Shown: one piece after another, positions 6,114 to 51,010 of the stretch
Layout: the number at the start of each line of letters is the position of its first letter
Position numbering within the stretch: the stretch's first letter is position 1
From: a virus
Taxonomy: Duplodnaviria > Caudoviricetes
Virus record (IMG/VR): IMGVR_UViG_3300025018_000180
Span: 1-56,189 of that record
Reading direction: 5' to 3' (one strand)
DNA: 56,189 nucleotides
Made by a program: the position numbers and the translations under genes
Notes under the pieces: model-generated
Seen by the model: only the letters and a program-made list of their open reading frames with translations
What the model was told of the DNA's origin: nothing
Databases searched by the model: none

Positions 6114-7205
6114 TTAACTATTTCTAAATTCAATATTAGTTTCAACACCAGCAATTTCAGATATATAAAATCTATAATTAATGCCAGACCATAAAGCAGA
6201 TGGTGAATTTACAGATACTACATCTGGATTTGGGAATTTATTACCACTTGGATATACACCACCGATTGTGCCATTACTTAATGCTGTTACGTACCATTTT
6301 GTTTTAAGCGTAGATGTTGATGGAATTGCTACCCAAACATATTCAGCACCTGTTGTATTATATGTTACATTTACTGTTCCTGTACTTGAATTTACTACTT
6401 TTGTGCCTGCGTTAATTAACGCCTGACCTGCTGTTGGTCTTGGGCTTGCACTAGGAACTTTACCATAAAAATATGGGTATATTCCCGTAAATGAATCATT
6501 AATAGTATTGCTTGTTCCTGCTGGTAGTGGTGAATTAAAATTGTTTCCATCACTGTCTTTTGGTTGTACACCAGCATCATAATCAACAGAAGCACCCCAA
6601 CTATTACTTCCTACAGTAACTACATGATTTGTTGTTTGTAAAACAACACTTGTTGCTGTTGTTGCTGTTGTTGCTGGTAACCCTACTCCTGTAAAATTCC
6701 ATTCATTAGGTAATCCGCTTCTAAATGGAGAAGAAGCTGTGTATTGTGGGTTTATTGAACCTCTACTAAAACTACCATTAAATGTCAATGTTGATGCAGT
6801 TGTGCCCACTTCTACCAAACCACTTACACTTACCGTAAATGAAGATAATGATGGTGCTGTTAAAGTAGGATAGAAAGTTGTAATTAATATTTGTTGAAAC
6901 AATTCAGTATAACTTCTACCCGTTAGTGTTGTACCAGCAGCCATACCACCAACAGTTATATTTGAAGGTGTTGCACCTGTGTATATACCAGTAGTTCCAC
7001 CAGAAGAATTTTCTTTAAGAACAATTTTTAAACCGTCCCATGTTAAAACATCACCAATTGAAGCACTAGTTATAGAAGCATCAATTTCAACTCCTTTAGA
7101 TTTTAAAATACCAGCAAAATTGGTTTCACCAGATAAAGTCAGAATATCGCCAGAAGACTGTTTTGTTTGAAGGTCAGATAAAGGTAATCTCGTAAAAAAA
7201 CCCAT
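6114..7205 (-). CDS. Virion structural protein
   Basis: 363 aa, Ser/Thr/Gly-rich. Shares YTGATPSNITVGG...L.GRS with the 949 aa gene, and its MGF...LTLSG start resembles the 1-2097 gene. Confidence 0.6.
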   Translation of the reverse strand: MGFFTRLPLSDLQTKQSSGDILTLSGETNFAGILKSKGVEIDASITSASIGDVLTWDGLKIVLKENSSGGTTGIYTGATPSNITVGGMAAGTTLTGRSYTELFQQILITTFYPTLTAPSLSSFTVSVSGLVEVGTTASTLTFNGSFSRGSINPQYTASSPFRSGLPNEWNFTGVGLPATTATTATSVVLQTTNHVVTVGSNSWGASVDYDAGVQPKDSDGNNFNSPLPAGTSNTINDSFTGIYPYFYGKVPSASPRPTAGQALINAGTKVVNSSTGTVNVTYNTTGAEYVWVAIPSTSTLKTKWYVTALSNGTIGGVYPSGNKFPNPDVVSVNSPSALWSGINYRFYISEIAGVETNIEFRNS

Positions 7206-8041
7206 TATATTACATTATTTAATATATTCTCAATGTTATTAAATTCAAAAAAGGGTATTCTAATTAATTTAAAACCGTTATTTTTTGCAAAAGAATTTTT
7301 TATTTTATCGTGTTTTTGAATTAACAAAAACGATTTCATACCCCCAAAAAAATCTATAGGTTTATAATGTTGTTCCCCATCAAATTCAATTAATATATTT
7401 TTATCTATTAAATAAAAATCAAAAGTTAATTTGTTTTTACTTTTACATTTCTTAAATGACTTTTGATGTTTAAAATTTATTTTGTTTTCTATTAAAAAAC
7501 TATATATTTTATTCTCACCAAGATATCCTTTATTACATAGTGGACAGCCCCTATTTAAATGAGTTAATGGATATTGTTTTATTTTACCATGTACAGCACA
7601 AACAAATTCAATTTCAACTGAATTTTTAATAAATATGGTATTTGAATAATCATAACTATTGTTGTGTACAACATCACATTTTTTTATAAATTCATTATTA
7701 GTTAAAATTATTTTTTTTCCATAACATTTATTACAACCACAATTATTATATAAATGATTAGTTGGGTATACTTCAAAAATTTCACCACAATTATTACAAA
7801 TTAATTTTATTTTTTCTTTATACCCACGTACATCTAACAAATCATATGAATATTTTTCATCATATATTTTTTTTGATTTTTTAATTAATGTACTATTTGT
7901 TAGTTTTTTTTTATGATTTTTTTTATTATTAATATCATCTTCTCCAACCATAGGAAAAACTTTATATCCTTTAGTTGGGGCATCTGCAATGGCTATTGAA
8001 AACCAAGGATTTTTTATTATTTTTTCGTCTATTGATATCAT
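7205..8041 (-). CDS. Putative free-standing homing endonuclease (Zn-binding repeats plus Vsr/DUF559-like nuclease)
   Basis: CxxC/CxxH repeats (YDYS...C.VHG...HL..GCP.C) and a C-terminal FDFYL...LIEFDGEQHY...D..KN..A...LIRIP. Confidence 0.75.
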   Translation of the reverse strand: MISIDEKIIKNPWFSIAIADAPTKGYKVFPMVGEDDINNKKNHKKKLTNSTLIKKSKKIYDEKYSYDLLDVRGYKEKIKLICNNCGEIFEVYPTNHLYNNCGCNKCYGKKIILTNNEFIKKCDVVHNNSYDYSNTIFIKNSVEIEFVCAVHGKIKQYPLTHLNRGCPLCNKGYLGENKIYSFLIENKINFKHQKSFKKCKSKNKLTFDFYLIDKNILIEFDGEQHYKPIDFFGGMKSFLLIQKHDKIKNSFAKNNGFKLIRIPFFEFNNIENILNNVI

Positions 8042-8139
8042 AACTTAATAACCGCCCAAGTATTAACAAAAAAGTGATTTTTATATCACATTTCTTTTAT
8101 ATAAATACAAAAAAATAATATAGAATTTAAATCTAAACA

Positions 8140-8169
8140 AAAAAACCCATAACTTTTGAGTTATGGGTT
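8140..8169 (-). terminator. Intrinsic terminator at the end of the tRNA array
   Basis: Minus strand AACCCATAACT-CAAA-AGTTATGGGTT followed by a T run. Confidence 0.75.
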
Positions 8170-8279
8170 AGAATTAATTGTTTATTATAGAACTGTTAAA
8201 ATTTCACAGAACCCATACTGTAGTTTTTACATGTGAAGTCTTTCTCACAATAACCAAATTAATGGTGGGTGTTTTATTG

Positions 8280-8364
8280 TTGCGGGGAAAGGATTCGAAC
8301 CTCTACAATGCACGTATGTCTCTGGCTTATGAGGCCAGCGTGTTGCCAATTACACCACCCCGCG
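8280..8364 (-). tRNA. tRNA-Met(CAT), initiator-like, with a long variable region
   Basis: Acceptor CGCGGGG/CCCCGCA (C1xA72), anticodon arm CTGGC-CTCATAA-GCCAG, 17-nt variable region, T arm AGAGG-TTCGAAT-CCTTT. Confidence 0.8.
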
Positions 8365-8381
8365 ATATGTTATAAATACAC

Positions 8382-8921
8382 TTAAAAATCTAAATTTAAC
8401 TGTAAATCAATTTCATTAAAAACGTTAGAATTATTTATTGCTTCTATTATTTTATGTTTATCAACCTCCAAATAAATTAAATCTTTTAAATGTTTTCCTA
8501 CACTAATAATAGAATTGTCATTTTGAATATATAACAATTTTGCTTTTATTGCTGATTCAGGAGTTTCAACATTAATTTTTGTTTCAAAAAAATCAAATAT
8601 TTTAAACTCTGGTTTAACATTTTTATTATATAAAACATCAATACCAATTTTTTTATCTAATATGGGAAATTCTAATTTAAAACATAAAACTTCATCTTTA
8701 CCAACCATAAATTTATGTGAGGTTGAATTTCCAATTCTAAACGAATTATAAAAACCACCCTCTAAATGATAATTCACAGTAACTAAAACATCAATATCTT
8801 TAACTTCTCTATGCAATTTATCATTCAATACTAAACCTAAACTACCACAAAAAACAACATCAGGATAATCTGTTGCAATTTTCTTAATAACTAGTTTAAT
8901 TTCTTCACTTATATATTCCAT
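8382..8921 (-). CDS. Pol-beta-superfamily nucleotidyltransferase-like protein
   Basis: hG[GS]...D-x-D signature VFCGSLGL...KDIDVLV. Confidence 0.6.
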   Translation of the reverse strand: MEYISEEIKLVIKKIATDYPDVVFCGSLGLVLNDKLHREVKDIDVLVTVNYHLEGGFYNSFRIGNSTSHKFMVGKDEVLCFKLEFPILDKKIGIDVLYNKNVKPEFKIFDFFETKINVETPESAIKAKLLYIQNDNSIISVGKHLKDLIYLEVDKHKIIEAINNSNVFNEIDLQLNLDF

Positions 8922-8992
8922 ATTATTGATTATTTAGTCTACAAAAATAATAAATTAAAATCATGTTGTCAAGTAATTACTGATAATTGTTG

Positions 8993-9064
8993 TACTCGAT
9001 AAGGGAATCGGACCCTTGTCTGCCGATAGAAAGTCGGCAGCACTAACCACTATGCTAATGGAGC
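8993..9064 (-). tRNA. tRNA-Glu(TTC), slightly degenerate
   Basis: GCCGA-CTTTCTA-TCGGC anticodon arm, C5xC68 mismatch, T loop TCCGATT. Confidence 0.7.
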
Positions 9065-9065
9065 A

Positions 9066-9749
9066 TTATTTGTTTTCATATTTTTCATAGAATTTCTTCC
9101 ACTTTCTTATTGCATTATCACTTACACCATACTTTTCACCAGTTCCAGTATAACCAAACATCTTAATATCAAGTAATAAAACCTCATAACATGGTCTTTC
9201 AACTTTTCTATCATTTATAGATTTCTTAATCTGATTTTCAAATTTCTCTTGTTTTGTTTTTTTTATGTATCTTCCGTATTTTGGTTTAATCGTACTTTTT
9301 AATTTAATATTTTTTCCACCATGTGTAGATAATGTTGCATTACAATTGGGGCAAACAATTCTTAGATTCTTCAATCTGTTATCATTATTTATACCATTAA
9401 TGTGGTCAAGAATCAATGACATTTTTTTACCCTTCCATTCCTCACCTTGTCCACATAATTCACATTCTCTTAATTTTAAACCTTCTTTATATAATCTTCC
9501 TTTTAGTTTAGTTGTGTCAAAAGTAGAATCTTTAATTAAAATATCTTCTGTTTTTGTTTTTTTAAAGTTTCTACTAAAAGATTCACTTCTCGATGTAAAT
9601 GTAAAATGTTTGATATTAATATCAAATAATTCAATATATTTTTTTATGGTTATTCTATTACCATAGTTATTATTACCATATAATAATTTACATACTTCCG
9701 AATAATTTACAGATTCTTTTACTGCTATACTTAATTTTTCTTTTTCCAT
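9066..9749 (-). CDS. HNH homing endonuclease inside the tRNA array (probable start 9749, MEKEK)
   Basis: CELCG...LDHINGINNDNRLKNLRIVCPNCN and a C-terminal HTH (KYGVSDNAIRKW). The longer ORF-track start overlaps a tRNA. Confidence 0.85.
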   Translation of the reverse strand: MEKEKLSIAVKESVNYSEVCKLLYGNNNYGNRITIKKYIELFDINIKHFTFTSRSESFSRNFKKTKTEDILIKDSTFDTTKLKGRLYKEGLKLRECELCGQGEEWKGKKMSLILDHINGINNDNRLKNLRIVCPNCNATLSTHGGKNIKLKSTIKPKYGRYIKKTKQEKFENQIKKSINDRKVERPCYEVLLLDIKMFGYTGTGEKYGVSDNAIRKWKKFYEKYENK

Positions 9750-9801
9750 AATACTGTCATTTAATATAAATACAACAGTGTTCGAAAAAAGTTTAATTTT
9801 G

Positions 9802-9873
9802 CAGTGCGTGGGGGAGTCGAACCCCGACCTTGTTGGTGACAACAACATATGCAACCCTTACACCACACGCACT
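9802..9873 (-). tRNA. tRNA-Asp(GTC) with apparent 8/4 fold
   Basis: AGTGCGTG/CACGCACT-G73, TGTTG-TTGTCAC-CAACA, GGGG-TTCGACT-CCCC. Confidence 0.7.
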
Positions 9874-9877
9874 ATAT

Positions 9878-9952
9878 TGGCAGAGATAGCGGGAATTGAA
9901 CCCGCAGCAGGGCATAGACAGTGCCCGATGTTAACCATTACACCATACCTCT
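9878..9952 (-). tRNA. tRNA-Asp(GTC), CCA encoded
   Basis: AGAGGTA/TATCTCT-G-CCA, GGGCA-CTGTCTA-TGCCC, GCGGG-TTCAATT-CCCGC. Confidence 0.9.
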
Positions 9953-9977
9953 AAATTACTGATAATCAATCAGTTAG

Positions 9978-10051
9978 CACTCCCCGTAAGATTCGAACTC
10001 ACATTTCTAAGGTTGGAACTTAGCGTGTTAAACCATTGTCACTAGAGAAGT
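9978..10051 (-). tRNA. tRNA-Trp(CCA)
   Basis: ACTTCTC/GGGGAGT-G, CTAAG-TTCCAAC-CTTAG, GTGAG-TTCGAAT-CTTAC. Confidence 0.85.
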
Positions 10052-10121
10052 GTATATAACGTTGATTACTCGGTTCAACGTTAAAAACCTTTTTAAAATA
10101 CTTACCAAAGGTAAATATCAG

Positions 10122-10192
10122 TAGGGGATAAAGGAATCGAACCTTTGCTCTTGATATGTAACACCAGTGCGCTACCATTACACCAATCCCCC
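10122..10192 (-). tRNA. tRNA-Val(TAC)
   Basis: GGGGGAT/ATCCCCT-A, anticodon loop GTTACAT on a weak stem, AAAGG-TTCGATT-CCTTT. Confidence 0.8.
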
Positions 10193-10252
10193 ATATTTGG
10201 TGAAGGATTTTACCTTCGTTACTGAATATCTACTACAGATTTTCACCTAAAG

Positions 10253-10324
10253 TAGGGGCGATGGGAGTTGAACCCACGATACACATCTTATGAGAATGCT
10301 GCCTTACCACTTGGCTACGCCCCG
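10253..10324 (-). tRNA. tRNA with CAT anticodon (Met or Ile2)
   Basis: CGGGGCG/CGCCCCT-A (C1xU72), GCATT-CTCATAA-GATGT, GTGGG-TTCAACT-CCCAT. Confidence 0.8.
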
Positions 10325-10338
10325 ATATAATATTTTAG

Positions 10339-10416
10339 CACAGGGTGGTAGATTCGAACTACCTTGCAATTGGGGGCGAACCCAATCACGTCCAATGTGT
10401 ACACTTCAAACCCTGT
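10339..10416 (-). tRNA. Atypical tRNA-like gene (anticodon CGC or TCG, ambiguous)
   Basis: Perfect acceptor ACAGGGT/ACCCTGT and T arm GGTAG-TTCGAAT-CTACC. Aberrant D region. ATTGG-GTTCGCCC-CCAAT gives a 6- or 8-nt loop. Confidence 0.55.
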
Positions 10417-10421
10417 ATATG

Positions 10422-10495
10422 TGGAGTAGGTGAGTCTTGAACTCACAACCAAAAAGGTGCAAACCTTCTGTACGAGCCACTTGTTTATCTACCCC
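10422..10495 (-). tRNA. Atypical tRNA-Ala(TGC)
   Basis: GGGGTAG/CTACTCC-A with the G3:U70 Ala determinant, GAAGG-TTTGCA-CCTTT (6-nt loop), T loop TTCAAGA. Confidence 0.65.
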
Positions 10496-10524
10496 ATTTT
10501 TAATAAAAATATTTCAAATAACTT

Positions 10525-10598
10525 TGTTAAACTCTTAGTTAACCTTCGTTAAGGTTATGCAACGGTTACCACGTGCAGGTGGTTTAACATTAACCGTC
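10525..10598 (-). ncRNA. HDV-like self-cleaving (theta-type) ribozyme fused to the tRNA-Glu 3' end
   Basis: P1 GACGGTT/AACCGTT (G1:U), P2 TGTTAAAC/GTTTAACA, P3 ACC-TGCACGT-GGT, P1.1 GC/GC, P4 TAACCTT-AACG-AAGGTTA, J4/2 ACTAA. Confidence 0.85.
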
Positions 10599-10673
10599 TA
10601 CTCCCGATGGGATTCGAACCCACAATGACCGCAGTGAAAGTGCGGTGGCTTATTCCAATTTGCCAACAGGAGC
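10599..10673 (-). tRNA. tRNA-Glu(TTC)
   Basis: GCTCCTG/CGGGAGT-A, CCGCA-CTTTCAC-TGCGG, GTGGG-TTCGAAT-CCCAT. Confidence 0.9.
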
Positions 10674-10768
10674 GTGTAGTACTTTTTCTATCACTGCTAC
10701 CTGTTCATAAAATCTATTTCTTACTAAATTCTTCATTTTTTATTTTATTTAAATTTTCATTTTTTTAG

Positions 10769-10853
10769 TACCTCTGGCGAGACTCGAACTCGCAATCCTC
10801 AAAGGGCAACAAGGTTTAAACTTGTTATGTATCTCCAATTCCACCACAGAGGC
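10769..10853 (-). tRNA. tRNA-Leu(TAA)
   Basis: GCCTCTG/CAGAGGT-A, ACAAG-TTTAAAC-CTTGT, long variable arm, GCGAG-TTCGAGT-CTCGC. Confidence 0.9.
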
Positions 10854-10897
10854 ATATTAAATCACTCTCTGTGTCTTGTAATCGTTCACTATTAATA

Positions 10898-11035
10898 TTA
10901 TTTCTTTTCATTTTTCAATTTATTTTTTATTTCAAATCTAACCGCTTTCTTTCTTGCTTTATCATTACCTCTTATTTCAGAGTATAAACATTTACGGTCA
11001 TCAATTCTATCTGTTCTATTAGTATATGCTTTCAT
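10898..11035 (-). CDS. Small basic hypothetical protein (45 aa)
   Basis: MKAYTNRTDRIDDRKCLYSEIRGNDKARKKAVRFEIKNKLKNEKK with an A-rich start context. First ORF after the attenuator. Confidence 0.45.
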   Translation of the reverse strand: MKAYTNRTDRIDDRKCLYSEIRGNDKARKKAVRFEIKNKLKNEKK

Positions 11036-11052
11036 TTTATTAATTTTTAACC

Positions 11053-11083
11053 AAAAAAAAACCCGACTGTTTAGGTCGGGTTT
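11053..11083 (-). terminator. Intrinsic terminator (attenuator) upstream of the tRNA array
   Basis: AAACCCGAC-CTAAACA-GTCGGG followed by nine T on the minus strand. Confidence 0.85.
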
Positions 11084-11133
11084 AAATATTTTTTAGTTAT
11101 TTGTTTAACTAATTATAATATCTTTTACCCGAC
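11075..11133 (-). promoter_or_regulatory. Antiterminator hairpin
   Basis: A second GTCGGGT (11133-11127) can pair with the terminator 5' arm ACCCGAC (11081-11075). Inner helices are GATATT/AATATT and TAGTTA/TAACTA. Confidence 0.75.
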
Positions 11134-11212
11134 AAGGAATCCATTCCACATCCATATCCAACCATAACATGGCTGCTGCTTCTACTGCTAATATGTCGAT
11201 TAAATTTCTCAT
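11105..11212 (-). CDS. Putative attenuator leader peptide (35 aa)
   Basis: MRNLIDILAVEAAAMLWLDMDVEWIPCRVKDIIIS*. AAAAAATG start, and the stop lies inside the antiterminator. Confidence 0.7.
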   Translation of the reverse strand: MRNLIDILAVEAAAMLWLDMDVEWIPCRVKDIIIS

Positions 11213-11249
11213 TTTTTAATATTATATTTTTGTTTTTCTTAATTCTTTA

Positions 11250-11281
11250 CAAAACTAATATAAGTTTTTCATAAATACAAG
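11250..11281 (-). promoter_or_regulatory. Candidate promoter for the leader/tRNA operon
   Basis: Bacteroidota-type -7 box TAGTTTTG (11257-11250), with the phage motif GTATTTATG (11278-11270) upstream. Confidence 0.5.
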
Positions 11282-11304
11282 TGTTTTTAAAAAAAACCTT
11301 TAAA

Positions 11305-11742
11305 TTAGATAAATAATTTTCTTTTTTCATTATCTATATTATTATACGTAGATTTATTGTTAAGGTTACGTTGGTTATTCTTTTTATTTTCTACATTAAT
11401 CAAACCACCTAATTGAAACAATCCAATTGTATAATATGGGACACTAACACAGTACACTGTTTTAGTGTCTAAGGTTAAGATTCCAACATCATAATATTCA
11501 TATCTACTTACTGAATCAGCATGAATAAATGCTTTATATGTTTCAGGTACACCATGTTTCCAAATTACCATACCTGCTGGTACACGATATAAATCAAATT
11601 TCTCTTTATATATATACGTGTTTTTTTCTTGAACTTTATTTTTAACGGGGTTATAAATAGTTACAAATATTACCACTAAACTGAATAGCGTTATTGCTAT
11701 TGTATGTTTATTTCTCTTAAACCACTCTATCGTTTTTTCCAT
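11305..11742 (-). CDS. Hypothetical protein with N-terminal membrane anchor
   Basis: 145 aa with hydrophobic IAITLFSLVVIFVTIY. Confidence 0.6.
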   Translation of the reverse strand: MEKTIEWFKRNKHTIAITLFSLVVIFVTIYNPVKNKVQEKNTYIYKEKFDLYRVPAGMVIWKHGVPETYKAFIHADSVSRYEYYDVGILTLDTKTVYCVSVPYYTIGLFQLGGLINVENKKNNQRNLNNKSTYNNIDNEKRKLFI

Positions 11743-11907
11743 ATTAATTTAATACTTATTTTAAATCAATTATATATTTAAACCCACTAAAAACACCATA
11801 TCCTATCCAAAAAATGACTGATTGATTAATTTCACCAAGATAAAATAATTCACATAAAGTAATTATAGTTAATCCTACTATTGTTATATTTATATTTTTT
11901 ATATTAA

Positions 11908-12285
11908 TTAGAATTTAAATGGGCAATCACTACCATTATAATATAATAATGTAAAACTTTTTAATTCATTTTCAAAATAAAGATTACATAAATATTTTAT
12001 ATTTGAATATGCGTTTTTCATATCCAACAATGATATATAAATTTCTATATCATGTGCATCATATTCATAATGAGTTAAAAATATCAATCCATAATCACCA
12101 TTAACATCCATATGTGGTTTCCATGTATTTAAATATTTTTCATTATCATATAAAATTTCTTCCCATTCATACATATCGTTCCAAGAATATCCTATTTTTT
12201 CAGATATTTTCATTAACGATTTCTCGTTCTGTTGATTATCATTTAATTTAATTGAAAATCCTGCTATTCCTACAGTTGTGCTCAT
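11908..12285 (-). CDS. Hypothetical protein
   Basis: 125 aa, coupled to the upstream ORF. Confidence 0.6.
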   Translation of the reverse strand: MSTTVGIAGFSIKLNDNQQNEKSLMKISEKIGYSWNDMYEWEEILYDNEKYLNTWKPHMDVNGDYGLIFLTHYEYDAHDIEIYISLLDMKNAYSNIKYLCNLYFENELKSFTLLYYNGSDCPFKF

Positions 12286-12572
12286 TATTCAATTATTAAA
12301 GTTTTGGCTATATTTAAACCGTCTTTGGTTATTTCATAAAAAACATCGAAGGATTCTTCATCTTCTTTCAATAAACCCATTACAACAAGTTCATCACAGA
12401 CTTTCCATGAAAGTGAATTACCATCTACATCTTCATATATGTTTGGGTCACGGTTTTCGAATTCAGCACAACCATCATTAAGTACTATTTGTTGTAATAC
12501 TTGTTTGTGTTCATCAGTAAATTTGTATGTGACACAAAGATTATTATTAATAATGTCTACAGTTTTTTTCAT
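12285..12572 (-). CDS. Hypothetical protein, winged-helix-like C-terminus
   Basis: ELVVMGLL...YEITKDG pattern. Confidence 0.55.
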   Translation of the reverse strand: MKKTVDIINNNLCVTYKFTDEHKQVLQQIVLNDGCAEFENRDPNIYEDVDGNSLSWKVCDELVVMGLLKEDEESFDVFYEITKDGLNIAKTLIIE

Positions 12573-12604
12573 TTATTTATGTTTTTTATATTATATTTAA
12601 TTAA

Positions 12605-12760
12605 CTAAAAATGTGTTGAACATGCATCGTCAAACCAAAATATAGTATTTTTTGGTTTTGGTGTGTCATAAACACGATACCTATATTTATGTTCTCTTCC
12701 GCAAAGAACACATGCATAAATATCAGTTCTATACCAATATTTTTGTTTCTTACTATTCAT
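12605..12760 (-). CDS. Small Zn-binding-like protein (51 aa; not in ORF track)
   Basis: MNSKKQKYWYRTDIYACVLCGREHKYRYRVY...DACSTHF. The start overlaps the upstream stop. Confidence 0.45.
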   Translation of the reverse strand: MNSKKQKYWYRTDIYACVLCGREHKYRYRVYDTPKPKNTIFWFDDACSTHF

Positions 12761-13187
12761 TTTCTTTATGTTTTTTAAAATTTTCTAATAAAAAATTAAT
12801 ATTATCTCTACCAACAGGATTCATTGAATGACAAACCCAATCAGGCAAATCTAAATCATTTTCAACACAGAAATTAACTAACCATTTTGCACATTCATAA
12901 CCATTTTTTTCTTTAAAATCTTGGGTTTTCTCCCATTCGACATAATTATCCCAATTACTATTTGGAAAATAATGACTATCACTTAAATCATGGTCGAATG
13001 CTATTAATTCTGGGAAATATTGATGTTTCTCCCAATTTGATTTAATATATTTAACAAACTGATTATAATTACGAGCTATTTTCCAATCACTAACAAGAAA
13101 CGGAGTATACCTAGTATACTCATAGGCACTGTAAGGTGTTCTTAAATCATCTAAGAATAATTTATATGTTTTTTTGACGTTCTGCAT
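12753..13187 (-). CDS. Cyclic-phosphate-processing receiver-domain protein
   Basis: LFLDDLRTP, FDHDL, GYECAKWL and HSMNPVG motifs. Confidence 0.8.
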   Translation of the reverse strand: MQNVKKTYKLFLDDLRTPYSAYEYTRYTPFLVSDWKIARNYNQFVKYIKSNWEKHQYFPELIAFDHDLSDSHYFPNSNWDNYVEWEKTQDFKEKNGYECAKWLVNFCVENDLDLPDWVCHSMNPVGRDNINFLLENFKKHKENE

Positions 13188-13692: not shown

Positions 13693-15024
13693 CTAAGAAA
13701 ATCTATGACTCTCTTTAATTCCTTCTTCTTGTTTCGTCCTATCACTACTTTTTAGTCCCTCATTTCTGAGTCTGTCATCCATAGGAGGATAGTCCACAAG
13801 CGTAAATTCGGGATAACGTGTCCCTATTTGTTTATTTAATATTCTTCGTCCTTCATTCTCTATGTTAGTGGCTGCATTGAAATCTCGGTTATGTACTGTG
13901 CCACATACGAGACAAGTCCATTCTCTTTCTTTCAATGATAAGTTTTTATACTTATAACCACAACAGTTACACAGTTTGCTTGAAGGAAACCATCTGTCTA
14001 TTATAATCAAATTTCTACCATACCATTCAGATTTATATTTTAATTGTCTAAATGTTTCATTAATACTTAGGTCTTGAATTGACTTCGATAGTTTATGGTT
14101 TTTCAACATACCGTTAATATTTAAATCCTCAATAACTATCGTTTGGTTCTCACGAACTAATTGAGTCGTAATATTATGTATGTAATTAATCTTTATATTA
14201 TTTAATTTTTCTTGAAATTTCGCAAGTTTAATTCTCGATTTCTCCCCATTATTTGATAATTTAGTTACTTCAACATCCTTATTCCATTTTTTACTAAAAA
14301 CAAATTCACCCGTCTTAACTCTTTGTTTTTTACTTAATTGTCGATTTAACTTAACTAACGTTTTTTCATTTTTACCTCTAAGTTTTAAGTTGTCAAATAC
14401 TTGACCATTGGAACAAACCATAAAATCTTTAATTCCAATGTCAACACCCAATATATCATTAATGGGAGCGGGTTGTTCATTAATAAAATTTTCAATTAAA
14501 ATTGCCAAAAAATATTTATCGGATTTCGTTCTACTTATTGTTGCTGATTTGATTTTATCCTTATGATTTGCAAGATAGTTTTTATCTCTTTCAGAGCATT
14601 CAAATCTAATATTTTTTAATGGCTTGCCTAATGTAATTTTGTTGTTTGAGTATGTGTTTTGTTTTGAAATTGCTTCTAATGGAAATCTTGCTGATTGATT
14701 AGTGTCATGTTTTGATTTATATTTAGGAAAACCGTTACCATTAACAAAGAATCGTTTATATGCCTCGGTTAAATTTATAATTGTTTGTTTTAAAACTTTG
14801 GTGTTGTGTTCGTTAAGATATTTAAACTCCTCTTTTTTTGTTAAATCGTTGTGGAAATAATTACCAAGTTCTTTCAGTCCGAGACTTGTTTTATCTAAGT
14901 TATATGCGTTTATTTTCTTTTCCAGACACATATTATAAACTTTACGATAAGAACCACAAAGTCGATTGATATAATTACTTTGGGTTTTATCTGGGTAAAG
15001 TCTTATTTTAACTGCTTTTAACAT
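13693..15024 (-). mobile_element. tnpB: IS200/IS605-family RNA-guided endonuclease TnpB, no transposase nearby
   Basis: N-terminal KIRLYP HTH, RuvC motifs GVDIGIK / IEDL / NRDFNAA, Zn finger SKLCNCCG...WTCLVCG. Confidence 0.92.
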
Positions 15025-49204: not shown

Positions 49205-51010
49205 TTAGTGGTTGTTTGAGTATTTCAAACAACCACAGTCATATATTCTATAATATTCTCTTTCAATCATTATTTGATGTTCTGTTTTTAGTGAATCGTA
49301 ACCTTTTTTAATCAAAATATCTTTTCTAAAACCAAATCTATGATATCTAAAAACATCCCCACTATTTTTAATATAAAAATAATTTGGTTTTGATTCACCA
49401 ATAAGTTTCATACCTAGGTTTTTATATAAATTACCATTACTATACCTTTTATCTGCATATGAAATAACTTCTTTAGGGTTATAATTCTTAATGAAATAAT
49501 TATATAACTTACTTGCTCCACCAATAACCGTTGTGTTTAATTTATTACAAAACCTCAACAATTCATATTCCCCTTCTTTCGATGATGAGTTCATGAACTT
49601 ACGCTTCTTTCCAAACGTCATTAGTGAAACCAATTCATTTTTATGAAACAACCCCAATTTTATTTTCGACCCAACAAAGCCTTGAATATGATTATTTTCT
49701 AAAAATTCTTTAACTAGTTTATTATCATCAATTTGTTTAATTATTGTTTTTCTACCATATATTTTATTATCTGTTAATCCTAATTTGTTTTTAATTATTG
49801 ATTTAACAATTTCAGATTTATATATCCATTCATCTTCAAAAATATGTAATAATTGGATTCCTTGTTTTTCACATTCTTCTGTTTTATTTAAATGATAATT
49901 TTTATCAAGAAATTTATCTGAATGAAAATATAAACCATTAAATTCGATTGCTAAGTTATGCTCAGGAAAATACAAATCTAATTCTTTACCATTAAGAATT
50001 TTTCTATCATTTTCAATAATATTATTAATTCTCAATTCAGTTTTAATAAAATCAACAATTTCTTTTTCTTTGATTGATGATTGTTCCGAAACAGGATTAC
50101 ATTTTGTACATAGTGTTTTAATCCCATAGTTGAGTCTATTTCTAAGTACATCTTTTTTAATTTCAAAATCACAGTGGGTTTTACAAAAATTTTTTACAAT
50201 AAATAAACCATTAGAATACTTAATATTCTCTACTTTAATTTTGAGTTTTTTTGCCCAAATATTGATTGTTTTATTGTTTATTTTATTTTTATATTCTTCT
50301 GTTTTTGTGTAATTATCTTTATTATATTCATTTAAGCATGTCTGTTTTGCTTTTTCTCTATTATTATAGTTTTTATCTTTATATTTTATTAAAGAAGTAT
50401 CATTTGCCTTTTTTCTGTTATTATAGTTTTCATCACCATATCGTTCTAATGTTGTTTTTTTTGCTTTTTTTCTATTGGTAAATGATTTGCTATTATATTT
50501 TTTTATTTTGGTTGTTATTGTTTTTTCTTGAATATCACCATTTAATAATGTACAAGTTGTACCATATTTTTCTAAATTAGTTTTTTGTGTTTTTTCCTGT
50601 ACTATAATTGATTTTGAAGGATTATCAACACCATATTTTAATAAAGAAGTTTTTTTAGCACCATCTCTATTATTATAGTACACATCTCCATATTTATTTA
50701 ATTTTGTTTTTTTAACAGTATTTTTAAAAACATCGTCACTATTTTTACATTGTGTACTGCAATATTTTCCATAACCAAAATTAAAATTTTTAAAATTTAC
50801 ATAGTTATCACAGCATTTATTGAAACACTTTGGTTTTTCTTTTATGTTGTGAACAAATATATATAATTTTTCATACCAATTATTTACTATATTAATTGAT
50901 TGAATTTTTTCATATTCAACAGGGTGATTTTTTTTTAAATGTATTTCCCTTGTTTTATGTCCTGATTTGTTATCTGTTTTTAGATACTCTAATAATTCTA
51001 TTTTATTCAT
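49205..51010 (-). CDS. Putative homing endonuclease with KYG repeats
   Basis: K.T.L.KYG repeats, ELDLYFP...AIEFNGLYFHS nuclease, and C-terminal ELLRFC...GGASKL...SYAD...IYDCG. Confidence 0.8.
   Translation of the reverse strand: MNKIELLEYLKTDNKSGHKTREIHLKKNHPVEYEKIQSINIVNNWYEKLYIFVHNIKEKPKCFNKCCDNYVNFKNFNFGYGKYCSTQCKNSDDVFKNTVKKTKLNKYGDVYYNNRDGAKKTSLLKYGVDNPSKSIIVQEKTQKTNLEKYGTTCTLLNGDIQEKTITTKIKKYNSKSFTNRKKAKKTTLERYGDENYNNRKKANDTSLIKYKDKNYNNREKAKQTCLNEYNKDNYTKTEEYKNKINNKTINIWAKKLKIKVENIKYSNGLFIVKNFCKTHCDFEIKKDVLRNRLNYGIKTLCTKCNPVSEQSSIKEKEIVDFIKTELRINNIIENDRKILNGKELDLYFPEHNLAIEFNGLYFHSDKFLDKNYHLNKTEECEKQGIQLLHIFEDEWIYKSEIVKSIIKNKLGLTDNKIYGRKTIIKQIDDNKLVKEFLENNHIQGFVGSKIKLGLFHKNELVSLMTFGKKRKFMNSSSKEGEYELLRFCNKLNTTVIGGASKLYNYFIKNYNPKEVISYADKRYSNGNLYKNLGMKLIGESKPNYFYIKNSGDVFRYHRFGFRKDILIKKGYDSLKTEHQIMIEREYYRIYDCGCLKYSNNH

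Follow-up and report, generated by a model that had tools for sequence, protein, structure and literature searches.

The 56189-base IMG/VR virus record IMGVR_UViG_3300025018_000180, analysed here over its whole length and called the window below, carries an element at 11053-11281 (minus strand) that we interpret, with a probability of roughly 0.85, as a ribosome-mediated (leader-peptide) transcription attenuator gating a phage tRNA operon. Computation established the anatomy of this element, its alternative pairings, the co-variation of leader codons with array anticodons, the position of the matched codons, and the co-variation of terminator stem and antiterminator copy across related units. 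Four of six attenuator criteria can be read in the sequence: a short upstream ATG open reading frame (ORF), enrichment of regulatory codons within it, an intervening intrinsic terminator, and a mutually exclusive antiterminator that overlaps the 3' part of the leader. The window is estimated to be 18% complete and has ~29% G+C. It encodes a T4-type major head protein, with Flavobacterium phage vB_FspM_immuto as the nearest isolate (38% identity), which points to a fragment of a large T4-like phage, probably with a Bacteroidota host.

Anatomy of the proposed attenuator

The original prediction, made from the letters of the window, had described a candidate promoter, a 35-codon ORF, a strong terminator and a tRNA array in this order on the minus strand, and had quoted codons 6-24 of the ORF. 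All of these features lay where it had placed them, and the codon sequence was exactly as quoted. In order of transcription, the parts are as follows.

11278-11272, minus strand: conserved GTATTTA in the promoter-like region
11257-11250, minus strand: TAGTTTTG, Bacteroidota-type -7 box, 37 nucleotides (nt) upstream of the leader ATG
11212-11105, minus strand: leader ORF, 35 codons plus TAA, MRNLIDILAVEAAAMLWLDMDVEWIPCRVKDIIIS; an A-rich run precedes the ATG, and the stop codon is at 11107-11105
11197-11141, minus strand: sensor codons 6-24, encoding only Asp, Ile, Leu, Ala, Val, Glu, Met and Trp
11133-11127, minus strand: GTCGGGT antiterminator copy, codons 27-29 of the leader
11075..11133, minus strand: antiterminator, a long imperfect hairpin that encloses the leader stop codon and has GUCGGGU (11133-11127) paired to ACCCGAC (11081-11075) at its base
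11083-11053, minus strand: intrinsic terminator with a G+C-rich 9-bp stem, 7-nt loop and T-run; arms AAACCCGAC (11083-11075) and GTCGGGTTT (11067-11059), loop CTAAACA, T's through 11053
10853-8279, minus strand: tRNA array of 10 genes, transcribed in the order Leu-TAA, Glu-TTC, Ala-TGC, Met-CAT, Val-TAC, Trp-CCA, Asp-GTC x2, Glu-TTC, Met-CAT

The GTCGGGT motif was overrepresented in the window, with four occurrences compared to 0.65 expected and 0/100 shuffles reaching four. Three of the four fell within the attenuator element, and we treat the remaining one (18387-18381), which lies inside a long ORF, as a chance occurrence.

Promoter-like sequences were frequent ahead of the leaders in the 25 related units described below: 19 had TAnnTTTG at most 70 nt upstream of the leader ATG, compared to 376/7234 (5.2%) of background 70-nt windows. 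In the passages of PMC6847099 drawn on here, the primary sigma factor of Bacteroidetes has a -7 element of consensus TTTG/TANNTTTG, and Bacteroidetes are described as lacking Shine-Dalgarno sequences and favouring A-rich starts, which the A-run ahead of the window's ATG fits.

Alternative pairings in the window transcript

We folded the nascent transcript of the window, taking it from the start of the leader through the last base of the terminator 5' arm. GUCGGGU was paired with ACCCGAC over 7/7 core pairs, in agreement with the predicted sequestration of the terminator arm by codons 27-29 in a hairpin that contains the leader stop. The arm-copy duplex had an energy of -12.2 kcal/mol versus a mean of -5.3 in 200 shuffles, 0 of which equalled it, and the antiterminator sub-fold reached -17.1 kcal/mol versus -12.1 for the terminator hairpin. 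For the transcript from 11243 to 11053, the two states were nearly equal, at -37.5 kcal/mol with the antiterminator and -36.5 with the terminator enforced, and with another transcript 5' end the minimum-energy fold showed the terminator. In the nascent fold with no ribosome the antiterminator formed; in the fold with the other 5' end, the leader start region paired beside, but not across, GUCGGGU. Ribosome position was mimicked by masking the ribosome's footprint in a simple fold: the antiterminator stayed intact with the masked ribosome at codons 10, 16 or 20 and was abolished with it at codon 24.

Leader codons of the window

Codons were called readable under strict wobble rules unless stated, and the background for the window was the long ORFs of these phages. 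Array-readable codons made up 20/34 of the window leader compared to a background of 0.26 (P=5.4e-5), and 18/25 of the codons ahead of the GTCGGGT copy (P=2e-6). Counted by hand, 17/19 of the sensor codons were readable, so most of the predicted match between codons 6-24 and the downstream anticodons held; the two exceptions are weighed below. Their position agrees with the peak of matched codons across the family.

Related units in other phages

The exact 25-nt hairpin of the window recurs ahead of a tRNA array in virus contig G001, where it lies between a 28-codon ORF (MKTMSIHMNSINWRRSSATMVGHAHIFS) upstream and, downstream, a series of His, Ser, Ser, Asn, Arg and Arg tRNAs together with tRNA-like stretches uncalled by ARAGORN. 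A search pattern requiring a CGGGT copy 32-62 nt ahead of an ACCCGAC..GTCGGGT hairpin returned 64 IMG/VR loci. A same-strand tRNA array followed 16/17 loci that had GC <=0.39 and a T-rich tail, and 0/47 of the remaining, G+C-rich loci. In bacterial genome contigs, tRNAs followed 2/120 pattern matches, and both of these appear to be pieces of such phages. In five of the IMG/VR contigs the tRNA-rich parts were examined, G003 being a complete 366-kb genome; a generic terminator finder yielded more tRNA clusters that follow a short ORF and a terminator whose stem differs, and a stem-variant search added unit L280.

Units were defined by a perfect-stem terminator at most 260 nt from a same-strand tRNA and the longest ATG ORF (15-60 codons) ending at most 60 nt upstream of it. 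This automatic rule gave 24 units, 23 after one duplicate was dropped, and L110 and L280 were added by hand to reach 25. Every unit has the terminator, since either the search or the finder required one. An ATG ORF of 19-43 codons was found in 25/25 units, and the first tRNA began 12-123 nt after the terminator in most of them. The three G003 units held 43 tRNA genes (called by ARAGORN), set against 55 tRNA matches across the genome (from Rfam), counts that come from different callers. Together with 33 metagenome leaders (below), these units answer the scan of phage tRNA arrays for an upstream ORF plus terminator that the original prediction had proposed.

Several candidates were rejected. The pattern restricted to the terminator gave 70 loci, mostly unrelated G+C-rich hairpins, of which only 6 had tRNAs downstream. 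L003 carries the identical 25-nt hairpin in a contig of 63% G+C and was considered unrelated. L097 is an A+T-rich pattern match with no ARAGORN tRNA and an unconfirmed tRNA 3' end seen by eye. The CTTGGG-type pattern in L273, L277 and L281 ends a 300-amino-acid ORF and was taken as an ordinary terminator.

Leader codons track the anticodons of their arrays

Leaders of different units are composed of different codons and resemble the arrays that follow them.

L140(-): leader MKTLVNIALQHPQHQPQCSC... (QHPQHQPQ), ahead of Pro, His, Pro, Gln and Gln tRNAs
L142(-): leader MKMDVFIVPQPKHQLQK... (PQPKHQLQ), ahead of Pro, Pro, Gln, His and Gln tRNAs
L145+6791: leader MKLTVNTQQQQQQPSYY... (QQQQQQ), ahead of four Gln tRNAs
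L143+1763: leader MKNIITITQITRIRGTK... (IITITQITRIR), ahead of Thr, Arg-TCT, Arg-ACG and Ile tRNAs
L280: leader MKTIAMIIRMRIIRPKMLG (IAMIIRMRIIR), ahead of Arg-TCT, Ile-GAT and Met-CAT tRNAs
L143+4756: leader MKFLNLNNNPSNLNSNFISGNIFLGTC..., ahead of Phe, Ile, Ser, Gly, Gly, Ser, Asn, Leu, Leu and Cys tRNAs
Leader stretch NLNNNPSNLNSNFISGNIFLGTC: ahead of Phe, Ile, Ser, Gly, Asn, Leu and Cys tRNAs
L144+1495: leader MQTIVNILTLNLVLCLSVL..., ahead of Cys, Val, Leu, Met, Leu and Leu tRNAs
Window's group (group A): leader MKNLMNIL..LVALLW.DDAEE.., ahead of Asp, Asp, Glu, Glu, Val, Leu, Ala, Trp and Met tRNAs

Raw matched fractions were dropped as a statistic since large arrays match everything, and each leader was scored against each array by its enrichment z over background codon usage (37526 codons from ORFs of at least 200 amino acids at the same loci). 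With one representative for each of 12 leader classes, the summed z was 46.0 on the true pairing versus 5.1 +/- 5.7 when shuffled (maximum 37.7), and 0/200000 permutations reached the true value. For 10 leaders their own array was the best of the 12, and for 11 under relaxed wobble; a previous run on 11 classes agreed with this. The true pairing also ranked first within single genomes: 1 of 6 possible pairings in G003, 1 of 24 in G005, 1 of 2 in G002 and 1 of 2 in G004. The original prediction had named co-variation of leader codons with anticodons among relatives as the decisive check, and by both the permutations and the rankings in four genomes they co-vary.

Synonymous codons were compared at positions whose amino acid the array serves and whose synonyms are not all readable. 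Choices readable by the unit's own array numbered 118/171 versus 97.8 expected from synonymous usage in the background (z 3.35), and for Leu, Ser and Arg they numbered 59/70 versus 45.0 expected (z 3.94). Synonymous choice thus follows the isoacceptors present, and the match is to anticodons and not merely to amino-acid composition.

The matched codons were also confined in position. The readable fraction was 0.57-0.81 at 63-98 nt upstream of the terminator stem versus 0.21 expected, and dropped to background (0.16-0.27) in the last 18-53 nt, which hold the antiterminator copy and the ORF tail. The leader stop ended 20-30 nt before the terminator stem in 23/25 units, though the leaders span 19-43 codons. 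The position of the matched codons and the spacing from stop to terminator are, at the level of sequence, the layout that an attenuator would need. At codons 2-3, array-cognate codons fell below background (0.05-0.10 versus 0.21), and the leader classes share an N-terminal pattern, M-K/R/Q-N/T-L/I-x-N-I...; these two observations suggest a shared ancestry of the leaders, retention of the start region for initiation, or the two together.

A hold-out scan of metagenomes returned 119 loci, with tRNA arrays after 51 and 33 new distinct leaders. These included close relatives of the window leader (L378, MKRIIDIIELVVAEAAALLWAVDDMDVEWIHCRV..., as well as L282, L366, L381 and L355) and a new class, MIMTQLLATYPTTYCLPET..., ahead of Cys, Glu, Tyr, Ala, Pro, Thr and Arg tRNAs. 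Over the 18 hold-out units with at least four called tRNAs, 195 leader codons were readable versus 102.4 expected, and z was positive in 17/18. With short contigs and homologous leaders, this is a replication of the pattern and not 18 independent events.

Antiterminator copies follow the terminator stem

In the nascent transcripts, the antiterminator pairing was part of the minimum-energy fold in 17/23 units, and the duplex between terminator arm and upstream copy was matched by at most 1/200 shuffles (0.005 or less) in 16/23. Many units were found with a pattern that itself requires the copy, so the fair sample is the seven units found only through their tRNAs: three were at <=0.005, six at <=0.055, and one (L145+6791) at 0.195. 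Where the stem changes, the copy changes with it. Units with a CCCAAGC/GCTTGGG stem (L140-, L142- and L280) have GCTTGGG or CTTGGG in the leader, L144, with an AGCTCGA.../...TCGAGCT stem, has TCGAGCT in the leader, and L142+ carries a C-G to U-A change on both partners. Judged from these sequences, the copy co-varies with the terminator stem. The GTCGGGT copy is read in three frames across units, as V-G, C-R-V (window) and K-S-G, and therefore the conserved element is RNA and not a peptide motif.

These results bear on a simpler view of the region, in which the 35-codon ORF simply encodes a small protein, the hairpin does no more than terminate or insulate the upstream genes, and the array has its own promoter. 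Group-A leaders are indeed conserved as peptides (MKNLxNIL..LVALLW.DDAEE), a TAnnTTTG match lies between the terminator and the first tRNA of the window, and the same type of hairpin also ends ordinary ORFs (L273/L277/L281; L097). We nevertheless consider this view very improbable: it leaves unexplained why non-homologous leader classes mirror their own arrays, why matched codons peak just before the copy, and why the copy tracks the stem over three stem types and three frames, and the short distance from terminator to first tRNA in most units leaves no room for a promoter. Attenuation of the trp/his type, as originally proposed for the window, is supported by the co-variation, the codon position, the isoacceptor-level choice and the stem-matched copies alike.

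Proposed mechanism

Under the attenuation model, transcription would start at the Bacteroidota-type promoter and a ribosome would translate the 35-codon leader. When codons 6-24 are decoded fast, the ribosome would cover GUCGGGU (codons 27-29) on its way to the stop while polymerase makes the terminator; ACCCGAC would then pair with its neighbouring 3' arm, and the transcript would end at the T-run. When any sensor codon is slow, its charged tRNA being scarce, the ribosome would stall upstream and leave GUCGGGU free to pair with the newly made ACCCGAC. With ACCCGAC sequestered no terminator would form, and polymerase would enter the ten tRNA genes. The array products (Leu-TAA, Glu-TTC, Ala-TGC, Met-CAT, Val-TAC, Trp-CCA and Asp-GTC) would relieve the inducing stall, amounting to negative feedback on decoding capacity for a defined panel of codons. 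Related giant phages divide most of their tRNA genes among several of these units, and the leader of each is composed in the codons of its own unit. We infer from the computed features that the leader is translated, that translation is coupled to polymerase, and which way the switch turns and what triggers it in the cell. As to the trigger, loss of host tRNAs to tRNA-cleaving defences accounts for the data no better than a simple supply-and-demand feedback on decoding capacity.

A broader reading is that giant T4-like phages of Bacteroidota run nearly their whole tRNA complement as codon-addressed regulons, in which a leader 'bar-code' turns each array on only when its codons slow, so that the phage detects which host tRNAs are lost (whether by host shut-off, by codon-usage mismatch or by anticodon-nuclease defences) and supplies just those anew. 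We offer this only tentatively, and would sooner bet against it than for it.

Several observations weigh against attenuation as proposed here. A masked ribosome on the stop codon still allowed the 7 core antiterminator pairs in the simple masked fold, so termination would have to rest on kinetics or timing and on sterics. No anti-antiterminator (1:2) hairpin was found in the window folds, a feature for which the family was not searched systematically, and an untranslated leader would therefore read through. The antiterminator was absent from the minimum-energy fold in 6/23 units, and L145+6791 has no convincing copy. The ATA and GCC sensor codons of the window are not covered by the array under strict wobble; the original prediction had made their match conditional on one CAT tRNA being Ile2 and on extended wobble. 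Many units are homologous, leaving about a dozen independent classes and not 58. Two classes were weak: L026, with a z of 0.9, and L119, which is uninformative as its array of 24 tRNAs reads almost all codons. In the hold-out, P<0.01 was reached singly in only 7/18 units and one unit had a z of -0.2, many arrays being cut by short contigs. The strict perfect-stem finder, which misses imperfect stems, detected no such terminators in three tRNA-rich regions of LR756511 and LR756508, two published huge phages. The window box TAGTTTTG has G at -10, contrary to the statement in the cited part of PMC6847099 that G is virtually absent at -10/-9 in that promoter class. Finally, the first tRNA of the window is separated from the terminator by a 205-nt spacer, compared to 17-101 nt in other group-A units, and within this spacer lie the 45-codon ORF and another TAnnTTTG match, TAGATTTG (10940-10933), which could act as an internal promoter and bypass the switch.

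That no 1:2 hairpin was found in the window folds also bears on what the switch senses. It may be real and yet respond to general translation status or amino-acid starvation, and not to particular tRNAs, the array being turned down when translation is brisk. A leader-peptide attenuator alone cannot distinguish an absent amino acid from an absent tRNA, and without a 1:2 hairpin the default is read-through, both of which suit such a role. A general sensor would have no need for leaders tailored to each array, however, and would leave unexplained the synonymous choice that tracks array isoacceptors; nor would extra tRNA cure amino-acid starvation. We judge sensing of this general kind improbable, and favour a response to the decoding of the panel codons themselves.

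Comparison with known systems

Textbooks describe leader-peptide attenuation for the genes of amino-acid biosynthesis and for a small number of synthetase genes, and the enterobacterial trp, his, thr, ilv, leu and pheA operons are controlled in this way. Like these, the phage units have a short leader rich in regulatory codons and a terminator 5' arm that pairs alternatively near the leader 3' end, and they share with the thr (Thr, Ile) and ilv (Ile, Leu, Val) attenuators the joint sensing of several amino acids. The enterobacterial attenuators regulate amino-acid biosynthesis enzymes on cellular chromosomes, whereas the phage units would regulate tRNAs themselves, with a panel of up to ~8 amino acids set by the array and with no 1:2 hairpin found. 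In pheST attenuation (through the pheM leader) and in the T-box riboswitches of aminoacyl-tRNA synthetase genes, a translation component is controlled by the state of the matching tRNA. The pheM leader senses one amino acid and controls a synthetase, in contrast to a codon panel and tRNA genes, and T-boxes bind uncharged tRNA directly and without translation, unlike the proposed phage leader.

The resemblance to T-boxes raises the alternative that the leader RNA is a riboswitch-like or protein-bound element, binding uncharged tRNA or a phage antiterminator protein, with the ORF incidental. As with T-boxes the regulated genes are tRNA-related, and strong conservation at the RNA level is limited to the terminator and antiterminator. 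Even so, an Rfam search of window 7000-13000 at E up to 1 detected neither a T-box nor any other riboswitch family, and leader-like matches were all sub-threshold: Trp_leader (RF00513) scored 23.2 bits at window 11053-11166 against a gathering threshold of 41, and Thr_leader (RF00506) scored 26.6 bits against 55 at 6338-6413 of L012. An incidental ORF would also not be expected to persist, with its fixed stop-to-terminator distance, in 25/25 units. We regard this as the least probable account of the element, and retain a translated leader in its place.

A close parallel came from a cellular genome. In Sphingobacterium spiritivorum ATCC 33861 (L160 2028-2217, plus strand), a TAAATTTG box is followed by the leader MLTIQLNNTWWWPGANCIGC*, a CGGGT copy, an ACCCGAC/GTCGGGT terminator with T-run, and anthranilate synthase (Pfam PF00425, PF04715). 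This trpE attenuator shares its architecture and stem with the phage units, including a TAnnTTTG promoter box and a leader starting M-L-T-I-Q-L-N-N. It differs in having three Trp codons (WWW) only and a stop ~49 nt before the terminator, compared to 20-30 nt in the phage units. Given an attenuator of the same build in the host phylum, the phage units look like amino-acid attenuators of that phylum re-aimed at tRNA genes.

Phage tRNA arrays are regarded as codon-usage compensation or as replacement of host tRNAs cut by anticodon nucleases, and large phages carry many clustered tRNA genes, often with homing endonucleases between them, as in the window. The phage-tRNA literature that we searched gave no account of a cis-acting sensor matching array expression to the array's own codons, and the full-text literature searched, with subscription-only literature outside its scope, gave no description of leader-peptide attenuation of tRNA genes, which agrees with the original prediction's statement that none was known for phage tRNA arrays. 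What appears to be new here is the class of genes regulated, tRNA genes in viruses, and the combinatorial leaders that track the anticodons of each array. If true, the leaders offer a cis-encoded readout of the purpose of each phage tRNA cluster and a reason for giant phages to sort tRNA genes into particular clusters, and constitutive versus on-demand expression of phage tRNAs, including under attack by tRNA-cleaving defences, becomes directly testable. Being small (~230 nt) and modular, the units could also be put to use as natural sensors that report the decoding capacity for selected codons.

Genomic setting and other features

The remaining features of the spacer and array in the window are as follows.

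11035-10898, minus strand: 45-codon ORF in the 205-nt spacer between terminator and first tRNA
10940-10933, minus strand: TAGATTTG, the second TAnnTTTG match, in the same spacer, read by eye
about 9749-9066, minus strand: HNH endonuclease ORF inside the array (phrog_10822, E 4.4e-39)
8921-8382, minus strand: 179-amino-acid ORF between two tRNA genes, with a weak sub-threshold match to nucleotidyltransferase DUF6036 (20.8 bits versus 23.6)
8169-8144, minus strand: terminator closing the array, an 11-bp stem followed by TTTTTGTTTA

A sub-threshold Rfam match to the 'trpB ncRNA motif' (34.1 bits versus 59) at window 8133-8231 (minus strand) overlies the array-closing terminator and is probably just the hairpin. 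PHROG and Pfam searches gave no family match for the leader, the 45-codon ORF or an upstream 145-amino-acid ORF, a protein search with the last of these found no relatives, and a DNA similarity search against isolated phages had the tRNA-Leu gene as its sole match and no relative of the leader. Contigs of three other samples were identical over 11053-11281 wherever they covered it, save one low-depth contig (run X4) with one base fewer at 11072, in the terminator loop. A contig of run X4 had 9 differences at 11443-11701, too little for an argument on selection.

The window encodes a 144-amino-acid protein at 12753-13187 (minus strand), 1.5 kb upstream of the attenuator, that matches the Pfam family cREC_REC ('Cyclic-phosphate processing Receiver domain', E 4.4e-19) and phrog_1479. 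The Pfam description implies RNA-end processing, and a context of RNA damage or RNA-end repair near the tRNA array is suggestive, no more. Mobile elements occur in and around the array. They comprise a protein of TnpB/IS605 OrfB type, matching Pfam Cas12f1-like_TNB and OrfB_IS605, and three ORFs for HNH/homing endonucleases, together occupying 13693-15024, 9749-9066, 8041-7205 and 49205-51010, all on the minus strand.

Arrays of the related phages had features of their own. Those of L140-L145 (G002-G005) are partly sorted by the first letter of the codon, into Pro/His/Gln (CNN), Asp/Glu/Val/Ala (GNN, with Leu-UUR, Trp and Met) and Thr/Arg-AGR/Ile/Met (ANN). In G003 (L140, about 14850-14942, plus strand), a Lys/Lys/Lys/Tyr/Tyr/Tyr cluster lacks a canonical attenuator. 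Ahead of it lie the mini-ORF MKKMKRKQ*, in which 4 of 8 codons are Lys, and a long hairpin with A's instead of T's behind it; this cluster may be under a different kind of control. L012 encodes an 87-nt tRNA-His(GTG) with a long extra arm at 6245-6331 (minus strand), and for several tRNAs of this array the Rfam tRNA score is close to the threshold, under it, or lower than the score on the tRNA-Sec model; these tRNAs are of unusual shape. Genes for tRNAs with a CTA anticodon (labelled Pyl by ARAGORN; amber-suppressor-type) were found in G003, G005 and LR756508 (L141 12041-12114 and 14087-14160; L143 10001-10073; L152 1335-1406), which hints at reassignment of TAG in part of these phages.

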